Positions 2,678 to 35,500 of a DNA stretch of 53,682 nucleotides are shown here, piece by piece (the first letter of the stretch is position 1; every line of letters starts with the position of its first letter). The stretch is taken from NCBI GenBank assembly GCA_947568535.1, contig CANOPF010000002.1, positions 1-53,682 of the forward strand, written 5' to 3'. This DNA comes from an uncultured Clostridium sp. GTDB lineage: Bacteria; Bacillota; Clostridia; TANB77; CAG-508. The notes beneath the pieces were generated by a model. It was not told the DNA's origin and made no database searches. It saw only the letters and a program-made list of their open reading frames with translations. The translations under genes were made by a program, and so were the position numbers.

Positions 2678-2715
2678 ATAACCAAAATATTAGAAATTTT
2701 TAGAAATGGTATTTG

Positions 2716-2829
2716 TATGGCAATCGCTTAAAAATTTTTTACCTTAGAAAAATCAAGGTTTTAAATTTTCACTAAAAAATAAGAATTGAGTATTTTTAAT
2801 ATGTAGAAGTTTTTTAAGCGATTGCCATA
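2716..2829. mobile_element. MITE-like miniature inverted-repeat element (114 bp) with 9-bp target-site duplication
   Basis: Perfect 19-bp terminal inverted repeats TATGGCAATCGCTTAAAAA (2716-2734) and TTTTTAAGCGATTGCCATA (2811-2829). They are flanked by perfect direct repeats TGGTATTTG (2707-2715 and 2830-2838). There is no coding capacity. Confidence 0.55.
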
Positions 2830-2835
2830 TGGTAT

Positions 2836-2864
2836 TTGACAAATGCAAAAGAATATGTTATTAT
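2836..2864 (+). promoter_or_regulatory. Near-consensus sigma-A type promoter driving a short rightward RNA
   Basis: TTGACA (2836-2841), 17-nt spacer, extended -10 TGtTATTAT (2856-2864). Confidence 0.5.
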
Positions 2865-2870
2865 TTAATT

Positions 2871-2950
2871 ACAGAATAAATGAACTTTGAATATCGCTAG
2901 TATTCAATCATGACAGTGTGTGTACCACGAATACACATGCTATTTTTTTT
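2871..2950 (+). ncRNA. Predicted ~80-nt antisense-type small RNA (candidate antitoxin/regulator of the convergent small ORF)
   Basis: It is bounded by the promoter at 2836-2864 and an intrinsic terminator at 2915-2950. A 5' hairpin TTGAATA/TCGCTAG/TATTCAA lies at 2887-2907. It has 15-nt complementarity to the start region of the opposite-strand ORF. It holds no meaningful ORF (only MNFEYR). Confidence 0.45.
2915..2950 (+). terminator. Intrinsic terminator of the rightward small RNA
   Basis: Stem 2915-2924/2932-2941 (10 bp including G-U pairs), loop CCACGAA (2925-2931), followed by T8 (2943-2950). Confidence 0.6.
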
Positions 2951-2951
2951 G

Positions 2952-2984
2952 TCAAAAAATAGAGCAGACCACGAATCTGCTCTA
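2952..2984 (-). terminator. Intrinsic terminator of the leftward small-ORF mRNA
   Basis: Stem 2960-2968/2976-2984 (9 bp). The + strand loop is CCACGAA (2969-2975), which reads UUCGUGG in the minus RNA. It is followed on the minus strand by TTTTTTG (2952-2959). Confidence 0.6.
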
Positions 2985-2997
2985 CGACTAAATACAG

Positions 2998-3138
2998 CTA
3001 ATTAGTCTTAACTTTGTTGTCATCTTGCATTTGCTTATATTGTTGTTCTAATTGTTGTTGTAATCTAATGTTTTTTTCTCTTTCTGCTATGTACTTGTCA
3101 GCAAAATGCAAAATTAAATCGCTAGTATTCAAAATCAT
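2998..3138 (-). CDS. Small hydrophilic protein, 46 aa (MILNTSDLILHFADKYIAEREKNIRLQQQLEQQYKQMQDDNKVKTN); not in the supplied ORF track
   Basis: ATG at 3138-3136 is preceded by GGAAAGGGGG (complement of 3141-3150). Stop TAG is at 3000-2998. It has its own terminator directly downstream. The 5' UTR can form alternative hairpins (3151-3175) able to mask the SD. Confidence 0.45.
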   Translation of the reverse strand: MILNTSDLILHFADKYIAEREKNIRLQQQLEQQYKQMQDDNKVKTN

Positions 3139-3196
3139 AACCCCCTTTCCGCCTTTTAGAAAAGGCTAGCCTTTCCTTTAACGTAAGGTTGTTAAT

Positions 3197-3225
3197 ATAT
3201 TACTATAATTTTATATTCAAAACAA
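3197..3225 (-). promoter_or_regulatory. Possible promoter of the small-ORF mRNA
   Basis: On the minus strand: TTGTTT (3225-3220), 17-nt spacer, TAATAT (3202-3197). This would give a ~50-nt structured leader. Confidence 0.3.
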
Positions 3226-3731
3226 GCGAACATAATAAAATGTTACAAGTTTTTTCCAATTATTTGTTGTCAAATTTTTATAGATGTAAGATTTTTCGCA
3301 TAAATAATATCAAATATTGGGTAATTTTTTAAGTAGTAAATTTGAATAGATATAAATTAAGAAAAACCTTAATAATTAACGGTTCTAAAATATTAATTTG
3401 ATAGTTATTCTAAATAACTGAAACATAACTTTTTATAAAAAAATAAAAATTTTTTTAATTACGGTTGGTTTTTTTGAAAAATATGGATGTATATATAATA
3501 GAGGAATAATTTCTTAAAAATTTTTTTAAAATCACGAAGAAAAATTTGAAAAACACCTCTGTATATAGAGTATGTGATAATAAATCAAAGAAGGAGGAAT
3601 CAAATACCATAAAACAATAAATATAGTGTTGACCCTTTTTACAAGCCCTTTAAATCAATAATTTATATGTGAATAATAAAGTCTTTCTAGCATATAAATT
3701 GAATAAATATTAATAAAAAACAGGAGAAACT

Positions 3732-3836
3732 ATGAACGAAACATTTAAAATTAATGTGTATTTTGATGAAAAGGGTGAAGAAATCGAAAATTTAATATCT
3801 CATTTTTTAATTGATCTATTAGAGAAAAAGAGATAA
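3732..3836 (+). CDS. 34-aa ORF resembling transposon-encoded TnpW-type mini-proteins (MNETFKINVYFDEKGEEIENLISHFLIDLLEKKR)
   Basis: SD caGGAGaaact precedes the ATG at 3732. It lies directly upstream of a large serine recombinase, as in Tn4451-like elements. The pattern (beta strand ending in hF, then an acidic stretch, then an amphipathic helix) matches my memory of TnpW family members. This was not verified by search. Confidence 0.35.
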   Translation: MNETFKINVYFDEKGEEIENLISHFLIDLLEKKR

Positions 3837-3857
3837 TAAATTTTTATTATTTCAGTA

Positions 3858-3901
3858 TTTGAATTTCCTAGAAAATTAGTTATAATTAATAGGAATTCAA
3901 A
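3858..3901 (+). promoter_or_regulatory. Promoter embedded in an inverted repeat upstream of the recombinase gene (candidate operator)
   Basis: TTGAAT (3859-3864), 16-nt spacer, TATAAT (3881-3886). Imperfect inverted-repeat arms TTTGAATTTCCTA (3858-3870) and TAGGAATTCAAA (3890-3901) bracket the -35 and the start site. Confidence 0.35.
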
Positions 3902-3935
3902 TCGTTGTTTTTATCAAGCATGGGAAGGAGGAGAG

Positions 3936-5505
3936 ATGCTTGAACCAATAAAAACAATAATTTATAAGGTAGCAATTTATATAAGATTATCGAAAGAAGA
4001 TGTAGACAAAGGCTATGATGAAAGCGAAAGTATTACCAACCAAAAATCCTTATTAACAGAATATGTAGAAAACTTAGGATGGGAATATGAATTAGTAGAT
4101 ATTTATATAGATCCAGGATATACGGGAACAAACTTTAACAGACCAGATTTTCAAAGAATGATTAGAGATATCGAAAACGGAAAAGTAAATATGGTCATAA
4201 CAAAAGATTTATCTCGTTTAGGTCGTGATTACATAGAAACTGGAGAGTATATTGAGAAATGGTTTCCAGAGCATGAGGTTAGGTATGTTTCTGTAACAGA
4301 TGGCATAGATACTTTTGCTACTAATAATGGGAATAATGATATAGCACCATTTAAATCTATATTAAATGATATGTATTCTAAAGACTTATCTAAAAAGATT
4401 AGGACAGCCTTACATACCATGCAAAAACAAGGTAAATGGGTAGGAGGAAAAACGGCACTAGGTTATGGGAAAGATCCAAACGACAAAAATAAATTAATCA
4501 TTTGTGAGCAAGAAGCGGAGATAGTAAGAGCTATCTTTAATATGGCTAATTTACGGAAATGAAATAGGCGTGATAAAAAATTACCTAAATGACAATAAAA
4601 TACCAACAGCCAATCAATTAAGATATAGCAAAGCAACATTTTGGGAAAACAAAACAGTAAAAAATATCCTAAAAAATGAAGTATATATTGGAAATACTGT
4701 GCAAAATAAGAGAAGTAGAATTAGTTATAAAAACAGAAAGTTGAGAAGTAATCCACAAGAACAGTGGAATATTGTGGAAAACACACATGAACCAATCATT
4801 GAAAAGCAAGTTTTTGATAAAGTACAAAAAATGGTAATCGTGCAAAAATATAATAGGAATGAGAAAAAGCATAAGTTTTTATTAGATGGATTATTGTTTT
4901 GCTATGAATGTAAACACAAAATAGGAGTAAGAGGAAAGAAAAACGGCTATATGTTTATGATATGTAATAATTATCGTAGAAACTCAAAATTAGGACTTTG
5001 TACATCACATGGATTTAGTTATGAAGCATTAGAAAAAACAATACTACAATACATAAAGAATTTATTTTTAGCAATCGATAGTAAGAAAATAGAATTGAAC
5101 ATAAAGAATAATCGAACGAAACAAGATTATGGAAAAATGCTTAAGCAGAAACAAGCAGAAATAAATCTTGTGAAAGATAATATAGACAAAATGTATGTTG
5201 ATAAGTTGAATAACAAAATAAGTGAAGAAATGTATAATAGGCTATTTGATAAGCTAATAAAAGAAGTAAATCAGAAAGAGAAAGAATACAATGAGTTAAA
5301 AAACAAAAAAGAAAATGCTTTGCAAGATGATAGTAAAGAGATAGAAAAGATAGTAAAAGAATTTCTAAAATTGGAAAAGCCAACACCTGAAATCATGAAA
5401 GTAATCATTTATAAAATAGAAATACACCAAGACAAACAAGTAGATATCATTTTTAATTTTAAGAGATTAAATAATATTAGTGTCAGCAATGCACAAACTG
5501 ACTAA
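3936..5505 (+). pseudogene. Large serine recombinase (resolvase/invertase catalytic domain, recombinase domain, zinc ribbon, coiled coil), split by a +1 frameshift near nt 4545
   Basis: N-terminal VAIYIRLSKED...NQK...GKVNMVITKDLSRLGRD is a serine-recombinase catalytic domain. The second ORF (4570-5505) continues with the recombinase domain and CYECKHK...CNNYRRNSKLGLC zinc ribbon. Frame 2 is open from 4528. Deleting one nt near 4545 gives the continuous sequence ...AIFNMLIYGNEIGVIKNYLNDNKIPT. Confidence 0.85.
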
Positions 5506-5560
5506 TTTAATATTGCGTATTAGAATAGTCAAAACAAAACAACATAGCTGTCTACTTTGA

Positions 5561-5866
5561 CCTCAACCAGAAGGAATATCCATGGCAGTTCCAATGAAAA
5601 ATGGAGGAATGAAGATAAGTAAAGTAATTTATTATGTCATATTATCAGGAATTACAACAGGAGTAGGTGCTTTTTTTGGTGCCATCATAGGCTCTATATC
5701 AGAGACCATCATAGCAACTTGCTTAAGTTTTGCAGCGGGGGCTATGTTATATATTGTATCGGGAGAACTAGTACCAGAAGCCAATCATTTGTATCATGGA
5801 AGAATGACAGCTTTAGGAAATATGTTAGGATTTTTAATGGGAATTTTTGCTACTTTTATCCATTAA
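5561..5866 (+). pseudogene. ZIP-family (ZupT-like) metal transporter, 3' remnant only (about the last 100 codons)
   Basis: The frame opens right after a TGA at 5558-5560 with PQPEGISMAVPM..., which is the conserved (HN)xPEG(I/L)A(V/M)..P motif region of ZIP permeases. This is followed by two C-terminal TM helices (FAAGAMLYIVSGELVPEA...). No N-terminal half is found anywhere in the window. Confidence 0.7.
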
Positions 5867-18787: not shown

Positions 18788-21700
18788 ATGAATTATAAAG
18801 TTTTAAAATCAATGATAGCCATTCTATTAATCATCACATTAGTGGGATTAAATGTCATGTTTTTAGGAAATAAGGTCGCAATTGCTATTTATGAAGAATT
18901 AGAAAAGCAACAAGGGACAACCAACGTCGAAAATATTATTTTCGATGCATATTTCCATGAAGAAGAAACAAAAAAGCATAGTAAGCAAGCAAAAATTAAT
19001 GAAGGTGATAACCTAATTCTTGATTTAACCGTAAAGAATGTGGGTGTATTAGAAGAGGGAAAAATCAAATTAGAAAATACAAACTTCACCATTGATACAG
19101 AAAAGGTAAAAAATGAAAATATAAAAACAATCAATGAAGAGACAAATGAAATTACCTTAAACCATTTAAGTAGTGGAAATATCAATATCGTTTTACCAAT
19201 CAAATTTAACAAAGAGGATGCCAATACCTTTCATTATTTTGACCAAGAGAATATGGTTACTTTAACAGGGAAATATAAACAAAGTGATACTAATACCAAA
19301 GACGTAAAAGGGCAAGTAGTAACTAGACTAATGTGGGAAGACGAAGCAGAAGTAGAATTAACACAAGAAGTAGAAAAGTATCTAAATTTAGGCGAAAAAG
19401 GAATCTTATTAGAACAAAAAGTATCCTTAGCCATAACCAATCATGTTTTACCAATGGAAAGACAAGCCATTCAAGTAAAAGTACCAGAATTAGATGGTAA
19501 TTATCCATCTAAAGTAGTTGTATTATACAATGGAAGGAAATTAGAAGAAACAGCCTACCAATGGAATGAGGAACATAGAACTATAGATATTCAGCAAGAA
19601 CAAAATAAAGATAATATTCAATGGGGAACAGGAATAGAAGAATATAAGATCATCTATACTTATCCAAAAGAAGCAGAAACGGAAACAAAAAATATTGAAT
19701 TAGATACAACAGCCATAACAAAATTATATACAAAAGAAGAGGTAACCCAAAGAGACTGTCAACCATTAACCATAAATTATAAAGGAAGCAATATAACGAT
19801 AGACAAAATAACAACACCATCTATCGACAAAGGATATATGTATGCTAATGTTAACCGACAAGTTAGTTATCAGGAAAAAATCAGTACAGAATTTTCTCAA
19901 GTAGATTTACTAGAAGATACCATTACTTTAACAGCAGACGAGAAATTTATCGATGCCAAAAAAACAAAACATAATGTACAAAATAGTATTGAAACGAAAA
20001 AAATACAAATTAATAAAGACAATCTCTTAGCTATCTTAGGAACAGAAGGAAATATACAAGTACAAAAAACAGATGGAACAATATTAACCAATATTAATGC
20101 AAATGTAGAAGCAGATGAGAATGGCAATATCATTTATGAGGTAAATTCAACTGATTCTATACAAATACAAATGACAAAGCCACAACAAGAAGGAACATTT
20201 GTGATTTATATAGAAAAAGCAATCAATGGACAAACAGGATATACAAAAGAAGCGGTTAAAACATTTGTTGCTTTAGAAGATACAACTATCGTAAAAGATA
20301 CAGAAGTAGTTGGTATAAAAACCATAGCATTACAAGAGCCTGTTACTGAAGCAAAACTAAGTATCAATAACGATAATTTATCAGCATTAGAAAATAATGA
20401 AAATATCCAACTAGTCATTACCTTAAAATCAGATGAAGCAAAATATAAGCTATGGAAAAATCCACATCTTTATTTAAAACTTCCACAAGGGATAGAAACC
20501 ATAAAGGTAAATTCTACGCAAATTCTTTATACAGATAGCCTAGTTATAGAGAGTGCTAATTTAGTAGAGGAAGATAAAGCAATTGATATACAAATGCGAG
20601 GAGAACAGACAGAATTTCAAAATAGTATGAATGAAGGAATTCAGATTATTATTAATGCAGATGTTTCCTTCGCTAAAACAACACCAAGTCAATTGGCGAA
20701 AATAGAATTAATTTATGAAAACAAGAATGACACAATAGGAGAACAAAAAACAGATATAGGCATAAATATCCATTCAAAAGTTGGTGCTTTATTATATAAC
20801 CGATTAGAAGGATACAATGAAGAAAACGAGAAATTAGAAACGATTTCTCAACAAACTATTGAGGGAGAACTTAATACAAGAGCAGAAGCACGAGTAGGTA
20901 AAGCACATATGGAAGTAGTTAATAACTATGAAGATGTTATGAAAGAGGTTAATACCATTATTCATTTACCAAATACACAAAATCTAGAAGAAAAACAAAG
21001 TACGATTAATTTAGCTTTAGCTGAAGCAATAGAAACACAAAAAGATAATGTAAATATTTACTATGCCACACAAGACATCGAAAAAGATAGTCAGGAGTGG
21101 ACAAGTGAAGTGCCTAAGCTAGAAGATATTCAAAAAGTAAAAATAGTCGTAAAAGAACTTCAACCAGGGGAAAGTATTCCTGTTAATTACACCATGACAA
21201 TACCAGAAAACCTTACAGAAAATCAAGAAGCTTATCAAAAAACAGATTTAACTTATGAATATCAAGGAAAAGAATTTGATACTTATGCCACAGTAAGATT
21301 AGCAACACCTGATGAAAAGGTAAGCCAAGTAGTAGAGCAAGAAAACAATGGTTTAGGCGTTCAGGTAAAAGTATCTACACATGATAAAGAAATAAATAAT
21401 GGTGATATGGTACGTGAAGGGCAAACCATAAGATACCATATTGATGTAACCAATCATACAGGAAAAGAATTAAAAAATTTTTCCTTAGAAGGATTACAGA
21501 CTGATGCAGAAGGTAATACCAATGTTACTTTCTTTCACGAGAAAGAAATAAAAGAATACCAACCAATTGTTGCTCAAGAGGTTGTCGTAAAACGTTATAT
21601 GGAAGATGACACCCTAAAAAGTATAACATTAGAAAAAGAGAAAATTTTAGAAGGAGAAGTTGTTAGTTTCCAATATGAATTTACAGTAAATAAAAAGCAA

Positions 21701-23590
21701 AAAGAAGATGAAGTAACAAAAGGAAGTATTGTATTAAAGGCAGAAAATTTAGAGGAAACCATACCATTAATGGAAAATACCATAGAAAAAGCAGATGTAA
21801 AAGTAGTGACTACTTATGGTTCTAACGAAGCAGTAGAATTTATTGCTGATACAGAAAATGCATTCTTATATACTCTTGAAAATTTAACCAATAAGACTTT
21901 AGAAAATATAGAATTGAAGGTTGTCCTACCAGAAGGAGCAAGTTTTAGCCCAAATTATCAAAAAGATACAGATATCTATGAGTTTGTGGGATATGAAAAT
22001 AGAGAAGTAAAGTTAAAAATTCATCAATTGGCTGTTAATCAAAAGTTAACTATACCATTATCCATCACAATTGGTGAAATAGATAGTCATAAATTAGAAC
22101 AAGAATATACATTTTTCTGTGAAGCTACTGTTAATCATCAAACATATTATTCAAATGAAATAGAAAAAATAGCTAAACAAAATAGAGCAAAGTTAGGTAT
22201 ATTACAAAAAGCAAATAAAACAGGTGAATATGCAAAAGAAGGAGAGGAAATTACCTATACGACAACCATTACCAATCAATCTCTTTTAGACACAGAATTA
22301 ACCATAGAAGACAATTTAGAAGAAATTTTAGAGATAAAAGAAGCATATCTAGAAAAAGAAGGACATAAACTAAAGGATTTTGAAAATAGAGAAGAATCAT
22401 TTGTTAATACACAATACCCACTAAAAGCAGGAGAAACCATTCAAGCCATCATTAAGACAAAAGTAGGAGAGAATGAAGATGATATTACTGAATTTAGTCA
22501 TTATTTAGATATTTATAATTCTGTACAAAGTGATGAATCCAATGCAATTACATATCAATTAGAGGGTACAGAAGGAATAACAAAAGGAGACAAAGGAAGT
22601 ATTCGTGGAAAGGTATGGCTAGATAGTCATAAAGATGGAATAAAAGAAGAAACAGGAATTAGCCAAGTAGAAGTGTTATTAATCCATGCAGAAAATGGTA
22701 AAGTAGTAGCCAATACACAGACTAATAGTGAGGGAGAATATCAATTCCAGAATTTAGACAATGCTCGTTATTTGGTAGGATTTAAATATGACACAACGAA
22801 ATATACAGTAACAAAATATAAAGTAGAAGGAAGTAATGAAGATAATAATTCCGATGTTATTAACAGGGAATTAACAATTGGTGGACAAACCATGACATTA
22901 GCAGTTACCGATGAAATAAACATAGCAGGGAATATAATGGATAATATAGATGCAGGATTTTATGAGAATAAAATTTTTGATTTGTCATTAAAAAAAGGAA
23001 TTAGGAAAATTATTACCCAAAGTTCAAGAGGAACAAAAGTACAAGAATATCATGATGTAGATTTAGCTAAAGTAGAATTACATGCCAAAGAAGTACAAGG
23101 TGCTAATGTTTTAATTGAATATGTAATCAAAGTAACCAACGAAGGCGAAATACCGGGATTTGTTAATAATGTAATAGACTATTTACCAAAAGAATTAACT
23201 TTTAGTTCTGAAATTAACAAAGATTGGTATGTAACAAATGGTAGATTATATAATCAAAGTTTAACCAATGAAGTAATACAACCAGGCGAAACAAAAGTAT
23301 TAAGTTTAACATTAACCAAAACAATGAGTGCAGACACAACAGGAACCATTCGTAATACAGCAGAAATTGGGGCAAGTTCAAATGATTTAGGACAAGCTGA
23401 TCGAGATTCAACACCAGGCAATAAACAAGAAAATGAAGATGATATTAGTTCAGTAGAGGTTATTGTTTCTGTTAGTACTGGTGCAATGACCATAATGGTT
23501 ACCAGCATAACCATTATAATAGGATTACTATTTATTAGTTTGATTATCTATCAATTACGAAAAACAACAGTAAAAGACGAGGAGGTGTAA
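18788..23590 (+). CDS. Giant surface protein A1 (1600 aa): N-terminal anchor/signal, long beta-rich region with DUF11-like repeats, SdrD-B/CnaB-like domain, DUF11-like anchor-proximal domain, xxxTG sorting-like signal
   Basis: AAGGAGG SD. SdrD-B-like GKVWLDSHKDGIKEETGISQVEVLLIHAENG...SEGEYQFQNLDNARYLVGF...NSDV (about 22594-22870). DUF11-like FDLSLKK...LIEYVIKVTNEGE...NTAEIGA...DRDSTPGNKQENEDD. C-terminal SVSTG (23468-23482) plus hydrophobic stretch plus RK tail. Confidence 0.85.
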   Translation: MNYKVLKSMIAILLIITLVGLNVMFLGNKVAIAIYEELEKQQGTTNVENIIFDAYFHEEETKKHSKQAKINEGDNLILDLTVKNVGVLEEGKIKLENTNFTIDTEKVKNENIKTINEETNEITLNHLSSGNINIVLPIKFNKEDANTFHYFDQENMVTLTGKYKQSDTNTKDVKGQVVTRLMWEDEAEVELTQEVEKYLNLGEKGILLEQKVSLAITNHVLPMERQAIQVKVPELDGNYPSKVVVLYNGRKLEETAYQWNEEHRTIDIQQEQNKDNIQWGTGIEEYKIIYTYPKEAETETKNIELDTTAITKLYTKEEVTQRDCQPLTINYKGSNITIDKITTPSIDKGYMYANVNRQVSYQEKISTEFSQVDLLEDTITLTADEKFIDAKKTKHNVQNSIETKKIQINKDNLLAILGTEGNIQVQKTDGTILTNINANVEADENGNIIYEVNSTDSIQIQMTKPQQEGTFVIYIEKAINGQTGYTKEAVKTFVALEDTTIVKDTEVVGIKTIALQEPVTEAKLSINNDNLSALENNENIQLVITLKSDEAKYKLWKNPHLYLKLPQGIETIKVNSTQILYTDSLVIESANLVEEDKAIDIQMRGEQTEFQNSMNEGIQIIINADVSFAKTTPSQLAKIELIYENKNDTIGEQKTDIGINIHSKVGALLYNRLEGYNEENEKLETISQQTIEGELNTRAEARVGKAHMEVVNNYEDVMKEVNTIIHLPNTQNLEEKQSTINLALAEAIETQKDNVNIYYATQDIEKDSQEWTSEVPKLEDIQKVKIVVKELQPGESIPVNYTMTIPENLTENQEAYQKTDLTYEYQGKEFDTYATVRLATPDEKVSQVVEQENNGLGVQVKVSTHDKEINNGDMVREGQTIRYHIDVTNHTGKELKNFSLEGLQTDAEGNTNVTFFHEKEIKEYQPIVAQEVVVKRYMEDDTLKSITLEKEKILEGEVVSFQYEFTVNKKQKEDEVTKGSIVLKAENLEETIPLMENTIEKADVKVVTTYGSNEAVEFIADTENAFLYTLENLTNKTLENIELKVVLPEGASFSPNYQKDTDIYEFVGYENREVKLKIHQLAVNQKLTIPLSITIGEIDSHKLEQEYTFFCEATVNHQTYYSNEIEKIAKQNRAKLGILQKANKTGEYAKEGEEITYTTTITNQSLLDTELTIEDNLEEILEIKEAYLEKEGHKLKDFENREESFVNTQYPLKAGETIQAIIKTKVGENEDDITEFSHYLDIYNSVQSDESNAITYQLEGTEGITKGDKGSIRGKVWLDSHKDGIKEETGISQVEVLLIHAENGKVVANTQTNSEGEYQFQNLDNARYLVGFKYDTTKYTVTKYKVEGSNEDNNSDVINRELTIGGQTMTLAVTDEINIAGNIMDNIDAGFYENKIFDLSLKKGIRKIITQSSRGTKVQEYHDVDLAKVELHAKEVQGANVLIEYVIKVTNEGEIPGFVNNVIDYLPKELTFSSEINKDWYVTNGRLYNQSLTNEVIQPGETKVLSLTLTKTMSADTTGTIRNTAEIGASSNDLGQADRDSTPGNKQENEDDISSVEVIVSVSTGAMTIMVTSITIIIGLLFISLIIYQLRKTTVKDEEV

Positions 23591-23591
23591 T

Positions 23592-26500
23592 ATGAAGAAG
23601 CTTAAACAAATAGGTTATATTTTATTCATGTTAATCATTATTGTTTTGCTCAATTATCATACAGCAGAAGCAGCAGGAGTAAAAGGGTTAACCACAGAGC
23701 AAATATTTAATTGGGTAAGTAAAGAAAATGATGCATTTATAAAATTAGATGCAAAAGCATTATTAAAAACGTATTACAGTGAAAATCAAATACAATCAAC
23801 TATCAATGAAGCATCACATGGACCATGGTCTAAATATTGGCGATGTATACGTAGTTTTGAAACTAATCCCGAAAAATCATGGGGATTTAACCTAAAAAAC
23901 GTTATTGATATTGATTCAGATGGAGAAGTAAAAGTAACGTATATGGATAAGAATACACCCAAAACAGAGGAAATTACAAAAGGAAGAGCACAAAGATTGT
24001 TTAACAATTGGGGGTATGCCATAAGTACAGATTTAGATGTTAAAGCAGATGCTAGTAATAACTTTGGTCAAAACTCGTATTATGGTCATGATTACTATTA
24101 TGCCTACCGAAGCACATTAAAGAGTAACCATGTTTACTATCCAGGAGATTACAAAGAAGATTTTGGTCATAGGTTAGAGGCTTTAACATCTCCAACAGCA
24201 AGAAAATATGTCAAAAAAGGTTACACTGTTCGTATTTTAGTGGCTACCATGGAAAAAAATAAAGGTCAAGCAAGACTTATTTTTGGAAGAGCTAAAAGTA
24301 TAGATATAGATGAACCCGATCTAGGAAATTTAAAGGTAATTAAAAAAGCCACTAATTCAGATGTAAAATTAAAAGATGTAGGATTTACTGTTCAACAAGA
24401 ATCAACAGGTAAATTTGTTAAAGAAGTAACAACAAAAGGAAAAAAAGAAATCAAGTATGTCAATACAGAAAAGGAAGCACAAGTATTTTTTACGAATAGC
24501 AAAGGTGAAAGACTAATTAGTAATCTACAGACAGGAACTTACTTAGTTAAAGAAGTAAGTAATCCAAATGAGTATTATGAAGTTGCTGTTGAAGAAATAA
24601 AAAAGAAAGTAAAGGCAAAAAATACCGTAGAAATTGAAATGGAAAATACACAGGTTTATGTTGATTTATCTGGATATGTATGGGAAGATAAGTTTGACGG
24701 AGCCAAAATGAAAGAAAGAAATGACTTATATCGAGATGATCCACTTTATGATGGAAAAGATGAATTAAAAAATGGTATTAAAGTAAGATTAATGAAGCGA
24801 AAAAGTCATACAGATAGTAAAACAGGACAGATTATCTTAGATACACCAGAAAAAGTAAGAGAAACAATAACAAGTGCATTGGGTAGGTATTCTGCAACAG
24901 GTAAAATACAAGATAATAGAAATAATGGAAATGGAGAATATTTCTTTGAGAAAGTACCAGTAGAAGATTTAGAAGATTATTATATAGAATTTGAATATGA
25001 TGGAATGACTTATACAAATGTTAATCCACATATAAAAGTAAATAATGGTTCAAAAGCAATAGAAGGTGACGCACGAAAAGTACTAAATCAATCATTTGGT
25101 GTAATCAATGGCTCTACAGCAGGAGAAATAAATCAAGGAACGTATAACATAAATGCTAGAACAGATTTAGCAGGATATACCATCAGTGAATATTTTAAAC
25201 CAGGACAAAAAGAAATTACTTACATAAATCTAGGATTGCGTGAAAGAGATCAACCAGATCTATCTTTACAAAAAGACTTGCAGACAGTCCAATTATCAAT
25301 TAATGGATATGGACATACCTATTATTATAATCAAAGATATACACCACCAGGAGAAAATCAAAATGGCTCTAACTTAGGTGTTCAATGGGCAGAAAAGGAA
25401 TTAGATGGAACAAAAACATATTTAAGACCTATATATCAAGCAGATGTTGACTATACAGATACAAACACAGACAACGAATTGAAAGTAAAGATAACCTATA
25501 AAATAAGAATCAATAATGCAACAACAGGAGAGAAATTACAAGCACGAGTACATGAGGTAGTAGACTATTATGATGCACGATACGAAGGGAAACCAAAAGC
25601 AGGAACAGGATTAAATGCCCAAGGAGAATTGACAGGAGAGATTTCTTGTTCAGAACCAGTAGCTTATGGAACAGAATACAAAAAAATTATCATTAATACT
25701 GGAGATGGAGAACTATTGGGAAGTGGAGAAACTGGAGGTAAGCCATCATATAAAGATATCTATGTACAATTTACATTAGGTAGACAGGCTGTGCTTAATA
25801 TTTTAAATAACCAAGAGAATTTAGACAATGTAGCAGAAATTAATGCATATTCTATTTATGATGCAGAAGGAAATCCATATGCCGCTGTTGATAAAGACTC
25901 TACTCCAGGTAACTGTAAGCCAGGACAACCAGATACTTATGAAGACGATACAAGTGAAAGTCCATCGTTAAAACTAGAAGTAGCAGAAGCAAGAGAGATA
26001 GCTGGTAAAGTATTCTTAGATGAGACAGCACCAACATTAACAGTAGGAGAAGAACGTAGAGGATCTGGAAAATACGAAGACAACGAGAAAGGAATTGCAG
26101 GAGTAAAGGTTGTATTGAAAGAAAACAAGGAAAACGGAAAAACATATGATGAAGCAGAAACAAATGAAGAAGGAGACTTTTTAATTAATGGATTTATACC
26201 AGGAGATTATACATTAACATATACCTGGGGAGATGACACTTACACAGTACAAGACTTTAAAGGAACGATTTATGACAAAGAAAGATATACCATAAATCAA
26301 ACAGATAAATATTGGTATAAGGGAACAAACAAAAATGATCCAAACGAAAGATATTCAGATGCAATAGATGATTATTCATTAAGACAGAAGATTGATCAAG
26401 AAAGTGCACAAGGAAATGAGACAAGCAAACAAATGCATTCAACAACACCAACAATAGGAATTGGTGTAGAATATGAAACCATTTATACAGCTTCAACAGG

Positions 26501-27458
26501 AGATAAATATACATATAGAATTAACCATATAGACTTTGGAATTGTAGAAAGAGCAAGACAACAATTATCTATTTCAAAAGATGTTTCAGCAATAAAAATG
26601 AAATTGGCTAATGAACAAACAATTATTGATGCTACAGTAAATGCAGATGGAACATTAACAGGTACTCGTAAAGATTTAACGTATGGTCCACCTAATGGAA
26701 TATCCAATGGATTTGTGAAGGCAGAAATTGATGATGAGTTAATACAAGGAGCAACATTAGAGATTACCTATAAAGTTAGTGTGCATAATCAGAGCGAATT
26801 AGATTATGATTCGAAAGAATATTACCACTTTGGCAATCCAATAGGCGATATTATTTCATTAAAACCAGATGGAGTTTATGATTATTTAGATAATCAAATG
26901 ATTGTATCTGATAAATCTTCTACTACATGGAAAGTAGAGAATAAGGAAACAATGATCAATGAACCAACGATAGTGGAAACCTATTTTAATGAAGGTAAAG
27001 TAGAAGGAACAGACGGAACATATCAATGGGAAACAACAATAGAAAGTTATCAAGTGGTATTCACACAATGGAGTCAAACCATAATAGAAGAAAGTACAGA
27101 GACAATAAGAGACATTAAACTTAAGAATAAGACCATTTTGAAAAATGCACAACTTGAGCAGGAATTAAAACCAGGAGAAAGTAAAGAAGTAGAATTATAT
27201 ACGTCTAAGGTATTAGCCAATACAGATGAAATCAACTTGAACAATGATGTAGAGATGACACACATAAAACGTACAACAAAAACAGGAAGAATGCCAGATG
27301 TTGCAACTTCTAAAGCGTATGATAGAGGAGAAACCATAATTGTTACAGCAAACACTGGAGGCAACAAGAATTACCTTGCACCAATAGTAATAGGAGCCAT
27401 GGCTATGGTTATTTTAGGAGCAGGAGTTGTGTTAATTAAAAAGAAAGTACTTAAGTAA
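23592..27458 (+). CDS. Giant surface protein B1 (1288 aa): signal peptide, unassigned N-terminal domain, CnaB-type domain, two (SdrD-B-like + DUF11-like) modules, xxxTG sorting-like signal
   Basis: GAGGAGGTG SD; the start lies 1 nt after the A1 stop. Signal peptide ...NYHTAEA/AG. CnaB/E-box-like GTYLVKEVSNPNEYYEV. SGYVWEDKFDG... and AGKVFLDE...EGDFLINGFIPGDYTLTY. DKDSTPGNCKPGQPDTYEDD. C-terminal TANTG (27345-27359) plus TM segment plus KKKVLK. Confidence 0.85.
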   Translation: MKKLKQIGYILFMLIIIVLLNYHTAEAAGVKGLTTEQIFNWVSKENDAFIKLDAKALLKTYYSENQIQSTINEASHGPWSKYWRCIRSFETNPEKSWGFNLKNVIDIDSDGEVKVTYMDKNTPKTEEITKGRAQRLFNNWGYAISTDLDVKADASNNFGQNSYYGHDYYYAYRSTLKSNHVYYPGDYKEDFGHRLEALTSPTARKYVKKGYTVRILVATMEKNKGQARLIFGRAKSIDIDEPDLGNLKVIKKATNSDVKLKDVGFTVQQESTGKFVKEVTTKGKKEIKYVNTEKEAQVFFTNSKGERLISNLQTGTYLVKEVSNPNEYYEVAVEEIKKKVKAKNTVEIEMENTQVYVDLSGYVWEDKFDGAKMKERNDLYRDDPLYDGKDELKNGIKVRLMKRKSHTDSKTGQIILDTPEKVRETITSALGRYSATGKIQDNRNNGNGEYFFEKVPVEDLEDYYIEFEYDGMTYTNVNPHIKVNNGSKAIEGDARKVLNQSFGVINGSTAGEINQGTYNINARTDLAGYTISEYFKPGQKEITYINLGLRERDQPDLSLQKDLQTVQLSINGYGHTYYYNQRYTPPGENQNGSNLGVQWAEKELDGTKTYLRPIYQADVDYTDTNTDNELKVKITYKIRINNATTGEKLQARVHEVVDYYDARYEGKPKAGTGLNAQGELTGEISCSEPVAYGTEYKKIIINTGDGELLGSGETGGKPSYKDIYVQFTLGRQAVLNILNNQENLDNVAEINAYSIYDAEGNPYAAVDKDSTPGNCKPGQPDTYEDDTSESPSLKLEVAEAREIAGKVFLDETAPTLTVGEERRGSGKYEDNEKGIAGVKVVLKENKENGKTYDEAETNEEGDFLINGFIPGDYTLTYTWGDDTYTVQDFKGTIYDKERYTINQTDKYWYKGTNKNDPNERYSDAIDDYSLRQKIDQESAQGNETSKQMHSTTPTIGIGVEYETIYTASTGDKYTYRINHIDFGIVERARQQLSISKDVSAIKMKLANEQTIIDATVNADGTLTGTRKDLTYGPPNGISNGFVKAEIDDELIQGATLEITYKVSVHNQSELDYDSKEYYHFGNPIGDIISLKPDGVYDYLDNQMIVSDKSSTTWKVENKETMINEPTIVETYFNEGKVEGTDGTYQWETTIESYQVVFTQWSQTIIEESTETIRDIKLKNKTILKNAQLEQELKPGESKEVELYTSKVLANTDEINLNNDVEMTHIKRTTKTGRMPDVATSKAYDRGETIIVTANTGGNKNYLAPIVIGAMAMVILGAGVVLIKKKVLK

Positions 27459-27478
27459 AATCATCATCTAAGAGGAAG

Positions 27479-27508
27479 AAAAAACGAAGGAATAACCTTC
27501 GTTTTTTT
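27479..27508 (+). terminator. Intrinsic terminator after B1
   Basis: AAAACGAAGG (27481-27490), loop AATAA, CCTTCGTTTT (27496-27505), followed by TTT. Confidence 0.7.
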
Positions 27509-27714
27509 GCGATATAGATAACACCATAGAAAATAATATGAATCACATGACCATGGTTTGTTCTTACGCAAATAAGAAAAATAGAGAATAAATCTAAAAT
27601 GTTACCATTATGTTATAAAAATGTAAACAAAACTTAAAAAATAGATAAGAAAGCTCAAAAGTCCATTTCCCTATAAACAAAAAAGAAAAGAAAAAATGGC
27701 CAAAGAAATAGATA

Positions 27715-27742
27715 TTGATTTCAGCAAAATGTTTACTATAAT
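27715..27742 (+). promoter_or_regulatory. Candidate promoter of the A2-B2 operon
   Basis: TTGATT (27715-27720), 16-nt spacer, TATAAT (27737-27742), about 45 nt upstream of the ATG. It has the same -35 hexamer as the proximal A1 candidate. Confidence 0.4.
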
Positions 27743-27784
27743 ATAAGGAAAAAGATATTTTATGATACAAGGGAGTATAGACTA

Positions 27785-30700
27785 ATGCAAGAAAAAATAG
27801 TAAAGATATTATTCATTATCATATGTATAGTTACCTTAGTGGGATTGGATATCCTATTTTTGGGAAATCAAGTCATTCTAGCTTTGTATGAAGGATTAGA
27901 AGAACAAGAAACCACGACTAATAGCAAAAATGTTTTGTTTGATGCCTATTTTGAGGAAGAGACAAAAGTACATCATAAAGAACTCAAAATTAGTCAAGGA
28001 AATAACGTCATTCTAGATATCACCATAACAGAAGGTGGCATTTTGGAAGAGGGAGTAATAAAAATTGAAAACGCCAATTTTAAAATAGATAAGGCAAACA
28101 TAAAAGATAAAAATATCAAATGTATTCATGAAGATAGCAATGAAATAGAATTAACTGTAATTCCCAATGGAAATGTAAAAATAGTTTTACCCATTCAATT
28201 TGAACGACAAGAAGCAAAAAATATAGACTATTTTGATCAAGAAAATCAGATAAAGATTAAGGGGAAATATAAAAGTAGTGATACGAAGAAAAAAAGTGTT
28301 CAAGGTCAGGTTCTAACTAGAACACAATGGAGTGAAGATACCGATATAGAGTTAACACAAAAAATAGAAAAATATTTAGATTTAGGAGAAAAGGGGATTG
28401 TATTACAACATACCGTCAATGTTAAACAAGATAATAACACTTTGCCACTTAATAAGCAGATTCTTACTGTTGAAGTGCCAGAGTTGGCCAAACAAATGCC
28501 AAAGGAAATAAGCGTATTGTATAATGGAAATTCATTAGAACAAGAGAATTATCAATTAGATAGGGATAATCATATATTGACCATTAAAAGAACATACAAT
28601 GATGATGAAATTCATTGGGAGGAAGAAGAAGGTGAATATAAAATAATTTATACCTATGAAAAAGAGGTAGGTAGTGAATCTAGAGTCATCAATCTTAAAG
28701 CCAATTTAGTTACACAATTATACACAAAAGAACCAATTATAAAAACAGATGAACAATCAACAAAGATAAACCGTAAAGGAAAGATCATAACATTAAGAAA
28801 ACAAGTAACACCTCATATAGGAAAAGGTTATATGTATGCTAATGTGAATAATACAGTAGAATATAAAGAGAAAATGCAATTAGAAATTTCAAAAGTAGGT
28901 GTAATAACAGAAAATACGATAATTAAGCAAACAGATCATTTTGTTGATGCTGAAGAAGTAAGAAAAACTACAAATCATAGTATTACCTATAAAAGTATTG
29001 AACTAGATAAAAACAATTTACTAACTATTTTAGGAGAAAAGGGAAATATTCAATTACAACAAGAAGATGGGACAATGATTACTCGTATCGATAAAGATAC
29101 GTCATCCAATGAAGAAGGGAAAATAGTCTATGATTTACCAAATTCAGTGCATGGATTAACAATCGTATATACCACACCAGTAAAGGAAGGAAACCTAAAT
29201 ATCCAACTAGTAAAAACAATATGTGGTGAAACAGGATATACGAAACAAGAATTACAGTCATTTGTTTTATTAGAGAATATTACTTATATGGAAAATGAAG
29301 TTGAACAAGAGAAATTAACAAAAAATATAGCATTAAAAGAAAGCATGGCAAAAGCAAAACTAGAATTCAACAAGACAAATTTATCAACATTAGAAAAAAA
29401 CGAAAATGTACAAATTTTAATTACTTTATTATGCAACAATGAGAATGATAATCTATGGAAAAATCCTTATGTGGAAGTTCAGTTACCACAAGAAATCCAG
29501 AAAATAGCAATAAAATCCGTAAAGACTCTTTATCATGGTGGAATCTATATCGAACAGGCAATGTATAAAAAAGATGAGAAAGTAATTAGTTTATCCATGA
29601 AAGGAGAGCAATTAGCATTTCAAACCGATATGAATGAAGGAATACAAATTATCATTCATGCAGACATTACATTAGATAAGAAAACACCAACAAAAGACGC
29701 AGAAGTAAAAATGTTATATGCCAATGAAGGAGAAGCACAGAAAGAAGAAAAGCAGAGTGTTCAGTTAACTTCGAAATATGGTGTATTTGTCTATAATCAG
29801 ATAAGCAATTATAATGAATCGAAAGAAAATTTAGAGAGTCTTAGTGAAGAGATAGTAGAAGGAAATTTAGATAGTCATGCAGAAGAAAGAATAGCCAAAC
29901 AAGAGGTTACCATTATTAATAATTATCAAGAGCCAATAGAAGAAGTTGTTGTCGTAGGAAGAATTGCTGAGAATAAGCAAAAACAAAATAGTATAGAAAC
30001 AGAGTTATTAGAAGAATTGGCAGTAAGTAGAGAAGATGTCAACATATTTTATTCAGAGGATCAAAATGCGACAGAAAATAGTGATTCATGGGGAGATTAC
30101 CGAGAAAGTGTAAAATCATATAAAATTGTATTAGCTAATCAACATATTAATCCATATGAAAAAATGACTTTATCTTATCCATTAAAAATACCTAATAATA
30201 TTGAGCCAAACAAAACGAATTATCATGTAGAAGAAGTAACTTATCAGTATAAGGGACAAGAAGAAAAAATCACCTCTTCTATGAAACTGTCTACGGCAAA
30301 GGAAGAAGAATTAGCCAAACAAACACAACAAGTAAAAAAAATAGATGGCATGGAAATTAACATGAAATCTAAAATAGGAAAAAATGAAATAACTAACGAT
30401 GAAGTAATTTATGGAGGGCAATCCATTGCTTGTACCATAGAAATAACTAATCACACAGGAAAAGACCTAAACCATTTAGCTATAAAAGCTGACTACGAAA
30501 ACGTAAATTTTTACGATGAAGTAAGGTATGAATCAATTGGTGGATTAGAAGAAACGTTTAATATATATATAGAAGAGGTAGAAAATCAAACACAAAAAGA
30601 ATGGGGTATTGAACAGTTAAAAGACGGAGAGGCTACGTTAATTGAATATGAATTTTCGGTAAAAGAAATACAAGAGGGGAATATTCTTGGAAAATTAATC

Positions 30701-32590: not shown

Positions 32591-35500
32591 AAAGATATGT
32601 AAAGATTATTATTATCCTATGTTTATTTTCATGTATGTTAATTATTCCAAAGCAGTCAATTCTTGCTTTTGAATCAGCGGGAAAATTAGATGACTTTATA
32701 GCATTAACACAAAAGAATGCATTTTCAACAACTGATTTGTCAACCTTTAAAAAAACATATTTAGGTAAAACATTAAGTATGGGAGCGACAGATCCATCAC
32801 ATAAACAAGGTGCTTCTTGTGCTGGTCATGGTAATAGTATCCTTCAAGAAGCACCAATAGCAACCCGATTTATACAATGTATATTAGATGTCGAGACAAC
32901 ATTTAATGAAAAAACCAGAAAAGTAGAAGTGAATCGTACCTCTTTTTTTACCAATAATAAAGGGGAGATACAGCCTTCTTTAAAAGAAGAAGATATGAAT
33001 AGTGCACAAAGAGAATTGTTAAATAAAATAGCTTATGTAGCCTTTAAAGGAAAAGAAGAAAAGGGAAGCAAGGAAACTGATATTGATACACCATATAAGA
33101 AGACTTTACATGATTTATTACATAAAAGTTTGAATAACGAGCAAAGAAACTTAGGCATTAGTAAGTACCTAAAAACAGGAAAAATAGATAATGAAACAAA
33201 AGCAGATACTACCATTATTACTCAGGCAAATGCGTATAATAACAAGATAAAAAATGGCGATAAGTTTTATTCGTTAAAAACAGCTCCAAAGTTAAGCAAT
33301 AAAACAGTAAAATTATCAGGTGATGCAGAAGCAAAAGAGTATACATATATAGGGCCATTCAAAATTGTAAGTGGAGGAGGAATTAAACCTAGTGGTATAC
33401 AATGTATAGGAGCAAAGGGAGGAAAAAGAACAGTAAAAGGAATTGTGACAACAGCAAATGGAACCAATCCTAAAAAGGTTTCCACTATTCAAGACAAAAA
33501 GCAATTTTGGGTTGTTGTAGTAGGAAAATTAACCAAAATGCCTACCATAACATTAGAGAAGAAACTATCCTATATAGCTAATGCAAGAGTTGTCATATTA
33601 ATTAATACATCTCCAACTCATAGTGTACAACATAATGCTGTTTTTTCAGGAGCAACAGAAAAGACGGCAACATTAACATTAGAATTAACAGGAGCAGGTG
33701 TAGAAACAGGGAATGGAAACATAAACATTGAAAAGAAATCAAGTACAACAGGGGAACCAATGAAAGATGTTCAATTTACTATACAAAATAGTGAAGGTGA
33801 ATATTATACCAAGGCAAAGATTTTTTCTTCTACTTTTACCGATGATTGTATATGGATAACTGGTGCAAATGGAAGAATAGAGATTGCCGATATAGAATCA
33901 GGTATTTATACAGTAACCGAAATAGGTGTATTAAATAATGGTTATGGACAAGATAATTATGGGTATTTATCTAGTGGAGAGGAACAAACTGAAGAAGTAG
34001 AAATAGGAGGAACAGTAACATTTATTTTTGAAAATGTGAAACATACAGGCAAATTAGTCATTAACAAAATAGATAAAGGTACAGGTCAACCAATGAGTAG
34101 AATAGGATTTACTTTACAAATGGTATCACCAGGTGACAAGTATCAGAAATATATCCACATCAATGATAAGGGTAATATTACCTATGAATCAACTCCACAA
34201 ACGTTATTAACAACAGTAGATGGAAAATTAGTCATTGATGGTATATGGGAAGGAGCCTATAAATTAACAGAAGTAGAAAATCCTTATTTTGGATATGAGG
34301 TACTCCCTAAGATAATTGAAGAGCAGTTAATTGTGCAAGGGCATAGTCAAGAAGTTACAATTATTGTTGAAAATGAAAGAAAGTATATTAAACTATCAGG
34401 ATATGTATGGGAAGATAGAAATAATCTTATTGGAAAGAAATGGGAAAAAGATAATCTCTATACACCAAACAGTAATGACAAAAAACTACAAAATGTAGAG
34501 GTTATACTAAAGAAATCAGATGGAACAATATTGGATACACAAATAACCAATGAAAATGGCACATATGTATTTGGAGATTTTGCCTCAAACCAAAAACCAA
34601 TTGAAATCGCTGATTTACATGGAGCTTATATAGAATTTACTTATAATGGCATGTGTTATCAATCTGTAGAAGTAAATGCCAATCAAGATAATGGAAGTAA
34701 AGCAACAGATGAACCATTAAGAAAGGAATTTAATGAGGCGTATAGCACGATAACTAAAGGAAAAGCACAAAATGGAAATTACAATTTAGTCTATGATTAT
34801 CAGGATCACAAAGCTATCTTAACTTATGGAGAAAAACAAAAGTATGTATATGGATATGAAGGACAAAAATACCCTATTTCGGGTATTAGCAATCAATATA
34901 CATTAAAAGCTAATACATTAGATGCGTCCCCAGATAAATGGTTAGGACAATCAACATATACCATAGAAGATGTTTACAAAAATGGCATACAAGAGATTTC
35001 GAACATTAATTTAGGATTAACAGAAAGAGAAATGCCAGATATTGCTTTGGTACAAGATATTCAAGATGTCAAGATTGGGTTAAATGGATATATGCATACC
35101 TATCAATATGCACAAAGATTTTCCAAGTTAAATCAAGAAATAGCCAAATTTGTAGAAGAAAATAAAGATACGGATAAAATCTTTAATATCGGTGTGAATT
35201 TTGGAGAGAAATATGGTCCAGAACAATATACAGCTACCATTTATTCCTCAGACATTGTATACAATAACCAAGAGGGAAATCAGGGGAAATTAGGTGTATG
35301 GATTAATTATGAAATGAGATTAATGAATCAAACAGCTTCGGTAAAAACCGTAGTCAATGAGTTATATAATTATTATGATTCTGATTATGAAGTTGACTCA
35401 GTAACAGATAAAAATGGCAAACACCTTACCTATACTATAGATGAAGGGTATGTACAAAACAATCGTAAAAGAATGTTAATCCATCCAGAAGAGGGAATTT

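Follow-up and report, generated by a model that had tools for sequence, protein, structure and literature searches.

What does a convergent pair of short transcription units on a clostridial contig encode, and how might its two RNAs recognize one another? The pair occupies a module of about 400 base pairs (bp) within a 53,682-nucleotide (nt) stretch of an uncultured Clostridium sp. (positions 1 to 53,682 of contig CANOPF010000002.1, assembly GCA_947568535.1; the whole stretch is hereafter referred to as the window, and all coordinates are numbered along it unless a locus is named). It contains a small open reading frame (ORF) on the minus strand and, converging on it from the plus strand, a predicted antisense small RNA (sRNA) of about 80 nt. 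A previous inspection of the letters alone (the sequence-only reading) had likened the module to par, the Fst/RNA I-RNA II type I toxin-antitoxin (TA) locus of Enterococcus faecalis plasmid pAD1, and at its core proposed that two convergent RNAs pair at a repeat over the start codon and at their terminator loops. We find that this core is borne out, as both contacts co-vary in a family of 67 loci. The best explanation of the whole, to which we assign a probability of roughly 0.7, is a cassette whose sRNA represses in two steps the synthesis of a plausibly harmful peptide.

Two RNA-RNA contacts co-vary among homologous loci

The cassette was found in 51 genome loci, in a scan of one genome per species, and in a further 16 metagenome loci, and both convergent promoters are conserved in the 67. 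The sequence-only reading had suggested two checks, a search of other genomes for co-variation of the repeat and of the loops, and cofolding of the two predicted RNAs. Both came out in its favour: repeat and loops each co-vary, and the cofolded RNAs of the window reach -91.8 kcal/mol as compared to -68.0 kcal/mol for the separate molecules.

The start-site contact is built on a perfect 15-nt direct repeat, ATCGCTAGTATTCAA, which lies where the sequence-only reading had placed it (2893-2907 and 3118-3132); when the 400-bp module was shuffled 2000 times by mononucleotide, an exact direct repeat of this length appeared once. In the window locus, RNAduplex extends the pairing across a 2-nt bulge and over the AUG, as had also been proposed, and onward to the Shine-Dalgarno (SD) sequence, yielding 22 bp at -29.5 kcal/mol. 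The duplex is present in 33 of 33 distinct loci, where it forms an imperfect helix of 22-30 bp from the edge of the SD sequence to about codon 6, with energies of -24 to -35 kcal/mol and 23 different longest shared words. Cognate sRNA-mRNA pairs have a mean energy of -30.2 kcal/mol versus -19.5 kcal/mol for non-cognate pairs, and the cognate mean was reached in none of 10000 permutations.

The second contact joins the loops of the two terminator hairpins, whose complementarity was noted in the sequence-only reading; the word that they share is in fact 9 nt long (ACCACGAAT, at 2924-2932 and 2968-2976). Among the aligned loci, which provide 25 distinct pairs of hairpins, the hairpin tops always share a plus-strand word of at least 7 nt: ACCACGAAT, ACCGCGAAT, CCGTGAA, CCGCGAA, CTGCGAA, TGCAACTA or ATTCACGGT. 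Further loci add CTGCGAG and ATCCGGAAG, and a subfamily with a 36-residue peptide adds TCGTAAC and CTGCAAT, so that 11 loop words are represented in total, matched between both hairpins every time. The kiss was evaluated by joining the two hairpins in one alignment of 27 distinct sequences, in which the intermolecular pairing was written as a pseudoknot. In this joined alignment 98.7% of the cells are paired, 15 of 25 pairs have changed on both sides, and six of the seven intermolecular loop pairs are compensatory (one, for example, is GC 14 times and AU 11 times). None of 500 shuffles reached the observed values, and alignments that had been slid against each other were only 20-54% paired. 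Five pairs covary in the stem of the mRNA terminator, as do pairs in the stem of the sRNA terminator, and seven of ten loop types carry a YUNR motif in the mRNA loop (UUCG, UUCA or CUCG). The two hairpins have unrelated stems and are matched in their loops only; because the stems differ and the terminators are separate, a shared terminator does not account for the match.

Both words could, in principle, be matched at the level of DNA, as direct repeats to which a repressor, a recombinase or the peptide itself binds, or as products of gene conversion, in which case the hairpins would be ordinary terminators. The words are indeed direct repeats on one strand, a gene for a serine recombinase is located at a distance of 0.8 kb, and recombination between 15-nt copies has occurred at least once, as described below. 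However, transition differences between the repeat copies are strongly biased, with 37 giving G.U pairs and 5 giving C.A or A.C mismatches, which points to selection on RNA, since such an asymmetry is meaningless for DNA. The 7-9-nt words sit exactly in loops on unrelated stems, and gene conversion would require tracts of less than 10 nt. In locus L025 both loops have been flipped together (ATTCACGGT is the reverse complement of ACCGTGAAT), insertions of 80-200 bp between the terminators in five loci have left the loop match intact, and most loci have no recombinase nearby. A DNA-level origin of the words is thus hardly credible, and the conservation pattern instead makes an antisense RNA mechanism of the par kind highly probable.

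Copies of the cassette that share a genome provide a natural comparison of cognate and foreign partners. Two copies per locus occur only in L004 and L032, as tandem pairs (a and b), and two unlinked pairs, L012/L020 and L042/L047, each come from a single metagenome-assembled genome; the window holds a single copy, and no hidden further copy was found along its 53.7 kb. The co-resident copies differ at both contact sites. At the start site, cognate energies range from -29 to -35 kcal/mol and cross energies from -7 to -25 kcal/mol, and for the terminator loops the corresponding ranges are -9 to -14 and 0 to -6 kcal/mol. These modeled energies predict that copies within one genome do not cross-react. 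A different outcome is seen in L029 (positions 1190-1375 of that locus), a solo scar in which the sRNA promoter and first stem-loop are joined via the repeat to the mRNA leader and promoter, while the ORF and both terminators are gone. The scar apparently arose by recombination between the two direct-repeat copies.

Architecture of the two RNAs

The features of the cassette are listed in Table 1. The 5' end of the sRNA was placed 7 nt past the -10 box and its 3' end at the terminator. The resulting molecule folds into two hairpins (stem-loops SL1 and SL2) with a minimum free energy (MFE) of -16.6 kcal/mol, and 14 diverged homologues have the same architecture. The stems of SL1 covary by lineage, as seen in the pairs UUGAAUAU/GUAUUCAA, GUUUGAUU/GGUCAAAC, UCUGAUG/UGUCAGA and CUUGUU/AACAAG. 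The sequence-only reading had put each repeat copy in the loop of a hairpin and proposed a second loop-loop contact there. The sRNA half of this idea corresponds to SL1, which is conserved and covarying, whereas the UUGAAU/AUUUAA hairpin of the mRNA is absent from the MFE fold and is not conserved among diverged copies. With a start-site hairpin that is neither stable nor conserved, the second loop-loop contact was dropped. A search of Rfam returned no hits at the gathering score, and at a relaxed threshold only chance-level matches (E of at least 0.8).

The most conserved part of the whole module is the 5' tail of the sRNA (ACAAAAUAAAUGAAC, 2871-2886), where column entropy falls to 0.15-0.28 and where the pattern ACA(G/A)AAUAAAUGAAC is retained even in diverged paralogues. 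No conserved partner for the tail was found in the mRNA, the best duplex reaching only -8.4 kcal/mol. A tail of this kind, strongly conserved and without a partner in the adjacent mRNA, is compatible with an RNA that acts mainly in trans, using the tail as its seed and the adjacent mRNA as one target among others or as a sponge. Against this, the sequences that vary and co-vary are those matched to the linked mRNA, it is there that the paralogues differ, and no other complementary site was found in the 53.7-kb window. We consider a primarily trans-acting role unlikely, and favor the linked mRNA as the partner of the sRNA.

The mRNA is predicted to be about 240 nt long, running from about 3190 to 2953. 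A consensus fold of 19 full-length mRNAs computed with RNAalifold keeps four elements: a helix between CCUU at the 5' end and AAGG of the SD sequence, a leader hairpin, a hairpin around the stop codon that lies in a region of low entropy, and the terminator. Long-range 5'-3' pairing of the type found in hok is absent from this fold. The leader hairpin (GCCUUU/AAAGGC) is 97.5% paired and contains one covarying pair, which changes from U-A to C-G in 8 of 20 sequences. The sequence-only reading had seen in the leader three segments that could form mutually exclusive hairpins and mask the SD sequence; the segments exist and the alternative hairpin is possible (86% paired), and the element predicted to cover part of the SD sequence in the consensus is the invariant CCUU/AAGG helix.

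The two transcripts are predicted to end back to back at separate intrinsic terminators with little or no overlap. In a scan of 1.6 kb around the module, three terminator-like sites were found as compared to 0.2 expected from shuffles, and the plus-strand hairpin followed by T8 that the sequence-only reading had described (2915-2941) was recovered among them. The rightward promoter also stood up: it matches 11 of 12 consensus positions, has TG at -15/-14, ranks first among 12 promoter-like sites in the same scan, and its -35 and TGnTATTAT boxes are almost invariant in 42 aligned homologous loci. Promoter-like sites are no commoner in the scanned region than in shuffles, and a consensus match alone is thus little proof. 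The mRNA promoter is weak, matching only three of six consensus positions in its -35 box and falling under the threshold of the scan; equivalent boxes are also present in the 36-residue subfamily. Just upstream of this -35 box, a GTTCG motif (3231-3227) is conserved in both peptide subfamilies. A LexA-type box at this place was ruled out, as only a half-site is present. Another candidate, a 10-nt repeat (AAATGCAAAA, at 2841 and 3104), was set aside as chance; its copy in the promoter spacer is not conserved in other loci.

Table 1. Features of the cassette, in window coordinates. RNA features are predicted.
Feature	Position	Strand	Description	Basis
Whole module	2836-3232		~400 bp; limits are the two -35 boxes	
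sRNA promoter	2836..2864	+	-35 TTGACA 2836-2841, 17-nt spacer, extended -10 TGtTATTAT 2857-2864	
Predicted antisense sRNA	2871..2950	+	~80 nt; 5' tail, SL1, terminator SL2, U8	
SL1	2880..2911	+	inner stem 2887-2894/2900-2907, loop 2895-2899; carries the recognition sequence	
sRNA side of start-site duplex	2893..2914	+	15-nt repeat copy 1 plus UCAUGAC	
sRNA terminator SL2	2915..2950	+	stem 2915-2924/2932-2941, loop CCACGAA 2925-2931, U8 2943-2950	terminator scan
mRNA terminator	2953..2985	-	stem 2985-2977/2967-2959, loop UUCGUGG 2975-2969 (YUNR: UUCG), U6 2958-2953	terminator scan
3' hairpin around stop codon	2986..3007	-	GACUAA 3007-3002/UUAGUC 2991-2986	
Small ORF	2998..3138	-	46 codons from ATG 3138, 44 from TTG 3132; stop TAG 3000-2998	
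mRNA side of duplex	3118..3141	-	last SD base, spacer, ATG, TTG start, codons 2-5 (repeat copy 2)	
Shine-Dalgarno sequence	3141..3150	-	GGAAAGGGGG; nearly invariant in all loci	read from sequence
Leader structure	3144..3188	-	5' CCUU 3188-3185/AAGG of SD 3147-3144; hairpin GCCUUU/AAAGGC 3167-3162/3157-3152; alternative hairpin uses 3175-3169	
mRNA promoter	3197..3225	-	-35 TTGTTT 3225-3220, 17 nt, -10 TAATAT 3202-3197; start ~3190	sequence and conservation

The small ORF and its predicted product

Several lines of evidence establish that the small ORF is coding. A collection of 5.8 billion proteins contains 62 homologues with 70-100% identity, which differ by in-frame indels and are nearly all 41-46 residues long, and the column entropy at the three codon positions (0.45/0.26/0.58) follows the pattern expected for the minus-strand frame. 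A HMMER profile search of 1.84 billion representatives returned 78 clusters at 50% identity, all of which, with the exception of two spurious repetitive proteins, are 36-100 residues long. The family is described by the motif M-[NT]-x-x-D-[LV]-I-L-x-L-[VI]-[DE]-x-[LY]-[IL]-x-E-[KR]-[ED]-K-N-[IF]-x-L-Q, which is kept in the diverged tandem copies despite their differing nucleotides. Plus-strand ORFs antisense to the peptide gene (51 codons in the window, up to 162 in some loci) were rejected as coding because they cross two terminators, their length is not conserved, and both the entropy pattern and the in-frame indels fit the minus-strand frame.

The 46-codon ORF of the sequence-only reading, with its strong SD sequence and the hairpin and T6 of its terminator (2985-2959), is present as described; it is the start codon that requires revision. 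The GGGGG core of the SD sequence is 2 nt from ATG 3138 and 8 nt from TTG 3132. Loci L013-L023 have no upstream ATG, L050, L004b and L032b have an ATG at the position of TTG 3132, and in distant relatives the sole start, either TTG or ATG, is found at that position. In addition, most members of the family begin four residues ahead of the invariant aspartate. Based on the SD spacing, the starts of the distant relatives and the N-termini of the family, translation most probably begins at TTG 3132, giving a 44-residue product, MNTSDLILHFADKYIAEREKNIRLQQQLEQQYKQMQDDNKVKTN.

AlphaFold2 models the peptide as a single helix spanning residues 5-45 (mean predicted local distance difference test score of 87). 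It is hydrophilic, with a grand average of hydropathy of -1.28, zero net charge and no hydrophobic stretch, and its maximum hydropathy over 15 residues is 0.18, as compared to 2.7 for Fst. The product is thus predicted to be soluble, single-helical and without a membrane segment. Profile searches with the peptide against Pfam, NCBIfam, PHROGs, PADLOC and the PDB gave nothing above noise.

Distribution, boundaries and genomic context

All 51 genome loci belong to uncultured Clostridia of animal or human guts, with carriers from mice, humans, ruminants and zoo animals. When the window region was compared with distant loci by blastn, homology began at 2832-2835 and stopped at about 3230-3256, so that its limits are the two -35 boxes. 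The neighborhoods of the loci vary. About 17 loci, most of them closely related to the window, have serine recombinases nearby, and 8 have type IV coupling proteins; further neighbors include feoB, a ZIP transporter gene, a release-factor-like gene, a histidine kinase with its response regulator, and sigma/anti-sigma pairs. The module at 2836-3232 is accordingly an autonomous two-gene cassette that occurs in unrelated contexts. The sequence-only reading had it carried on a mobile element. Recombinases and coupling proteins fit this idea at some loci, but other copies lie beside genes such as feoB and ZIP, a blastn search of phage and plasmid collections with 2680-3930 gave no match, and three scans of viral contigs (IMG/VR) with three subfamily profiles revealed no relative.

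The context bears directly on what the peptide may do. The same RNA mechanism could serve a benign cytosolic regulator, for instance of a kinase, a sigma factor or a protease, and the cassette would then be a regulatory switch with no role in addiction or defence. A hydrophilic, zero-net-charge, single amphipathic and glutamine-rich helix is of the type that mediates protein-protein contacts, the peptide has no similarity to toxin or defence proteins, and housekeeping genes flank many of the copies. Against this, no conserved neighbor or synteny among the loci names a target operon; several diverged, non-reactive copies, tandem pairs included, can share a genome; homology is sharply bounded by the promoters of the cassette; and the scar has lost only the peptide gene. 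Because of the paralogues, the sharp bounds, the scar and the missing synteny, a selfish, TA-like cassette fits better than a dedicated regulator, which we regard as a less likely explanation that still deserves serious consideration.

Other features lie around the cassette in the window. A fragment of an IS110-family transposase (7-624) precedes, in this order, an extracytoplasmic function (ECF)-type sigma factor gene (832-1500) and a gene for a PepSY-domain putative anti-sigma protein (1493-2677), and the same sigma/anti-sigma pair flanks the module in L010, L011, L027, L030, L032, L046 and L047. Directly upstream of the sRNA -35 box, a 113-bp insertion resembling a miniature inverted-repeat transposable element (2716-2828) has perfect 19-nt terminal inverted repeats (TATGGCAATCGCTTAAAAA) and a folding energy of -36.7 kcal/mol; on either side stands one copy of a 9-10-bp duplication, (A)TGGTATTTG (2706-2715 and 2829-2838). 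The insertion site is empty in L046 and L047, and no second copy of the insertion was found in the window or in the fetched loci. The serine recombinase, in the 3936-5866 region, is split into two frames, 3936-4562 (Resolvase domain) and 4570-5505 (Recombinase domain and Zn ribbon), and is split in the same way in all close relatives. The ZIP transporter gene that comes after it is reduced to its C-terminal third (5582-5866). An intact ZIP gene directly abuts the module in L040, and from these two arrangements the 5' part of the gene in the window has seemingly been displaced by the recombinase segment. Farther away, four consecutive plus-strand ORFs of 1288-1601 codons (18788-37236) have a size that suggests a non-ribosomal peptide or polyketide synthetase cluster.

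Rearrangements were also observed within copies of the cassette. The inter-terminator inserts lie exactly between the convergent terminators of L022, L023, L024, L044 and L051 and begin with TAT(A/T)(T/G)TATAGGAAA; the one in L044 holds a perfect palindrome, ATTGTATAGGAAAAATCGAAAATTTTTCCTATACAAT, and a similar palindrome is present in L052. Their appearance suggests a further small element, mobile or repetitive, with the A/T tract as its target. In copy b of L032 (2270-2760 of that locus), an 18-nt unit corresponding to the left arm of the mRNA terminator, AAAAATAGAGCAAATCTT, occurs as three tandem repeats ahead of the full terminator. Finally, L063 (1-1857 of that locus) retains the peptide ORF and leader, but unrelated, coding-like sequence stands in place of the sRNA gene and of both terminators; this is either an orphaned copy or a chimera of the assembly.

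Comparison with known type I systems

The closest parallel in design is par, together with its chromosomal relatives. Both loci have convergent promoters with the sRNA located 3' of the peptide mRNA, and oppositely transcribed direct repeats that are complementary over the start codon (PMC7472228). In par an intramolecular 5' structure also masks the SD sequence (PMC7472228), a role that the invariant CCUU/AAGG helix may play in the cassette. The first contact of the par RNAs is made by their terminator loops, of which the one in the mRNA carries a YUNR motif (PMC7472228), and an equivalent order of binding is proposed here. The differences are equally clear. In par, one bidirectional terminator is shared and the loop match is automatic, whereas the cassette uses two separate hairpins whose loops co-evolve; par has two direct repeats, DRa and DRb, whereas the cassette has a single interrupted one (15 nt and 7 nt); and the peptide lacks the transmembrane helix, conserved tryptophan and PXXXG motif of Fst. 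Toxins of the Fst/Ldr type combine such a hydrophobic helix and tryptophan with a charged C-terminus. No similarity to par was detected by sequence or Rfam search. The assignment to the par type thus stands for the convergent promoters, the repeat and the YUNR-bearing loops, but not for the peptide or the terminator: the cassette is of par-type, type I TA-like design and, because it has no shared bidirectional terminator and no Fst-like peptide, is not a member of the Fst family.

The Ibs/Sib and Ldr/Rdl systems of Escherichia coli are short, autonomous, multicopy cassettes in which each antisense RNA picks its own mRNA. Cognate and cross energies of the present cassette differ likewise, whereas Ibs/Sib and Ldr/Rdl are fully overlapping antisense pairs with hydrophobic peptides in Gram-negative hosts. 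In Bacillus subtilis, the hydrophobic peptide BsrG is encoded by an mRNA whose 3' end is overlapped by SR4, a true cis-antisense RNA. The resemblance of bsrG/SR4 to the cassette lies in its multistep binding, which proceeds from a terminator-loop contact, and in an antitoxin that affects both translation and decay (PMC3834814). SprA1/SprA1as of Staphylococcus aureus likewise has its antisense RNA on the 3' side and its functional pairing outside the overlap, at the translation-initiation region (PMC8594479); SprA1, however, is a hydrophobic membrane toxin and its RNAs overlap at their 3' ends, whereas the peptide described here is predicted to be soluble and the overlap minimal or absent. RalR/RalA and SymE/SymR are type I systems with non-membrane toxins (PMC8309996), but RalR and SymE are larger nucleases, in contrast to a 44-residue helix without a detectable enzymatic fold. 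Clostridial type I systems covered by reviews have hydrophobic toxins only, and beyond Clostridioides difficile very few systems have been described in Clostridia (PMC6563280).

Proposed mechanism and its standing

Conservation and covariation support both RNAs, their hairpins, the two contacts and the coding status of the ORF, and on this basis we propose the following cycle. The weak minus-strand promoter would produce an mRNA for a 44-residue, hydrophilic, single-helix peptide, and the near-consensus plus-strand promoter an abundant, convergent sRNA. Before the sRNA arrives, the 5' end of the mRNA (CCUU) would mask part of its own SD sequence. The sRNA loop CCACGAA would then form a fast kiss with the mRNA loop UUCGUGG, whose YUNR sequence is a U-turn motif. 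Pairing would subsequently spread, such that the SL1 region and the mRNA form a duplex of 22-30 bp that begins at the 3' edge of the SD sequence, covers the start codon and reaches about codon 6. The duplex would block the ribosome and would probably mark the RNA for RNase III. By analogy with par (PMC7472228), we infer that binding proceeds in this order, that translation is blocked and that the RNA decays.

That the peptide itself may be harmful is suggested by the predicted layered repression, the autonomy of the cassette in unrelated contexts, the paralogues predicted not to cross-react and the scar without an ORF, traits that chromosomal type I TA loci commonly display. We put the chance that it is harmful when over-produced at about even; if it is, the cassette would be a type I TA system whose toxin is soluble and not a membrane peptide. 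Its size (44 residues) fits the usual limit of less than 60 residues of type I toxins, whereas their customary hydrophobic segment is absent. A more specific proposal is offered tentatively, at somewhat less than even odds: that the helix is the founder of a class of soluble, non-nuclease type I toxins with an intracellular target, held in check by an sRNA with a two-part address (a kissing-loop word and a start-site word) that has diversified across gut Clostridia into numerous specificities that do not react with one another.

Several points weigh against this overall picture. The promoters, ends and half-lives of both RNAs are predictions. In the MFE fold, two G.U pairs shrink the loop of the mRNA terminator to 3 nt, so that the kiss requires this loop to open. 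The covariation counts are not corrected for phylogeny or shared ancestry, and the putative SD-masking CCUU/AAGG helix, which is 95% paired, is invariant, so that covariation speaks neither for nor against it. The peptide is predicted to be soluble, with nothing alike among known toxins; the hydrophobic helix that almost every type I toxin possesses is missing, and searches linked the peptide to no toxin or defence family and to no structural one. A 2021 review lists two nucleases, RalR and SymE, as the only type I toxins of the cytosol (PMC8309996). Nor was any copy found in the phage, plasmid and viral collections searched, which weakens a role in the maintenance of mobile elements.

Taken together, the cassette represents a well-supported new family, in which the RNA logic is supported and the link to mobile elements is weak. 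Its par-type logic, a kiss followed by a start-codon duplex, is built around an unrelated peptide that is predicted to be soluble. Because the terminators are separate, the covarying loops provide direct evidence, from evolution, of selection on the kissing step. The natural variants, which are predicted not to cross-react, form a test bed for the rules of RNA-RNA specificity and could supply low-GC Gram-positive hosts with orthogonal translational repressors. Should the peptide prove toxic, its target would represent new biology.

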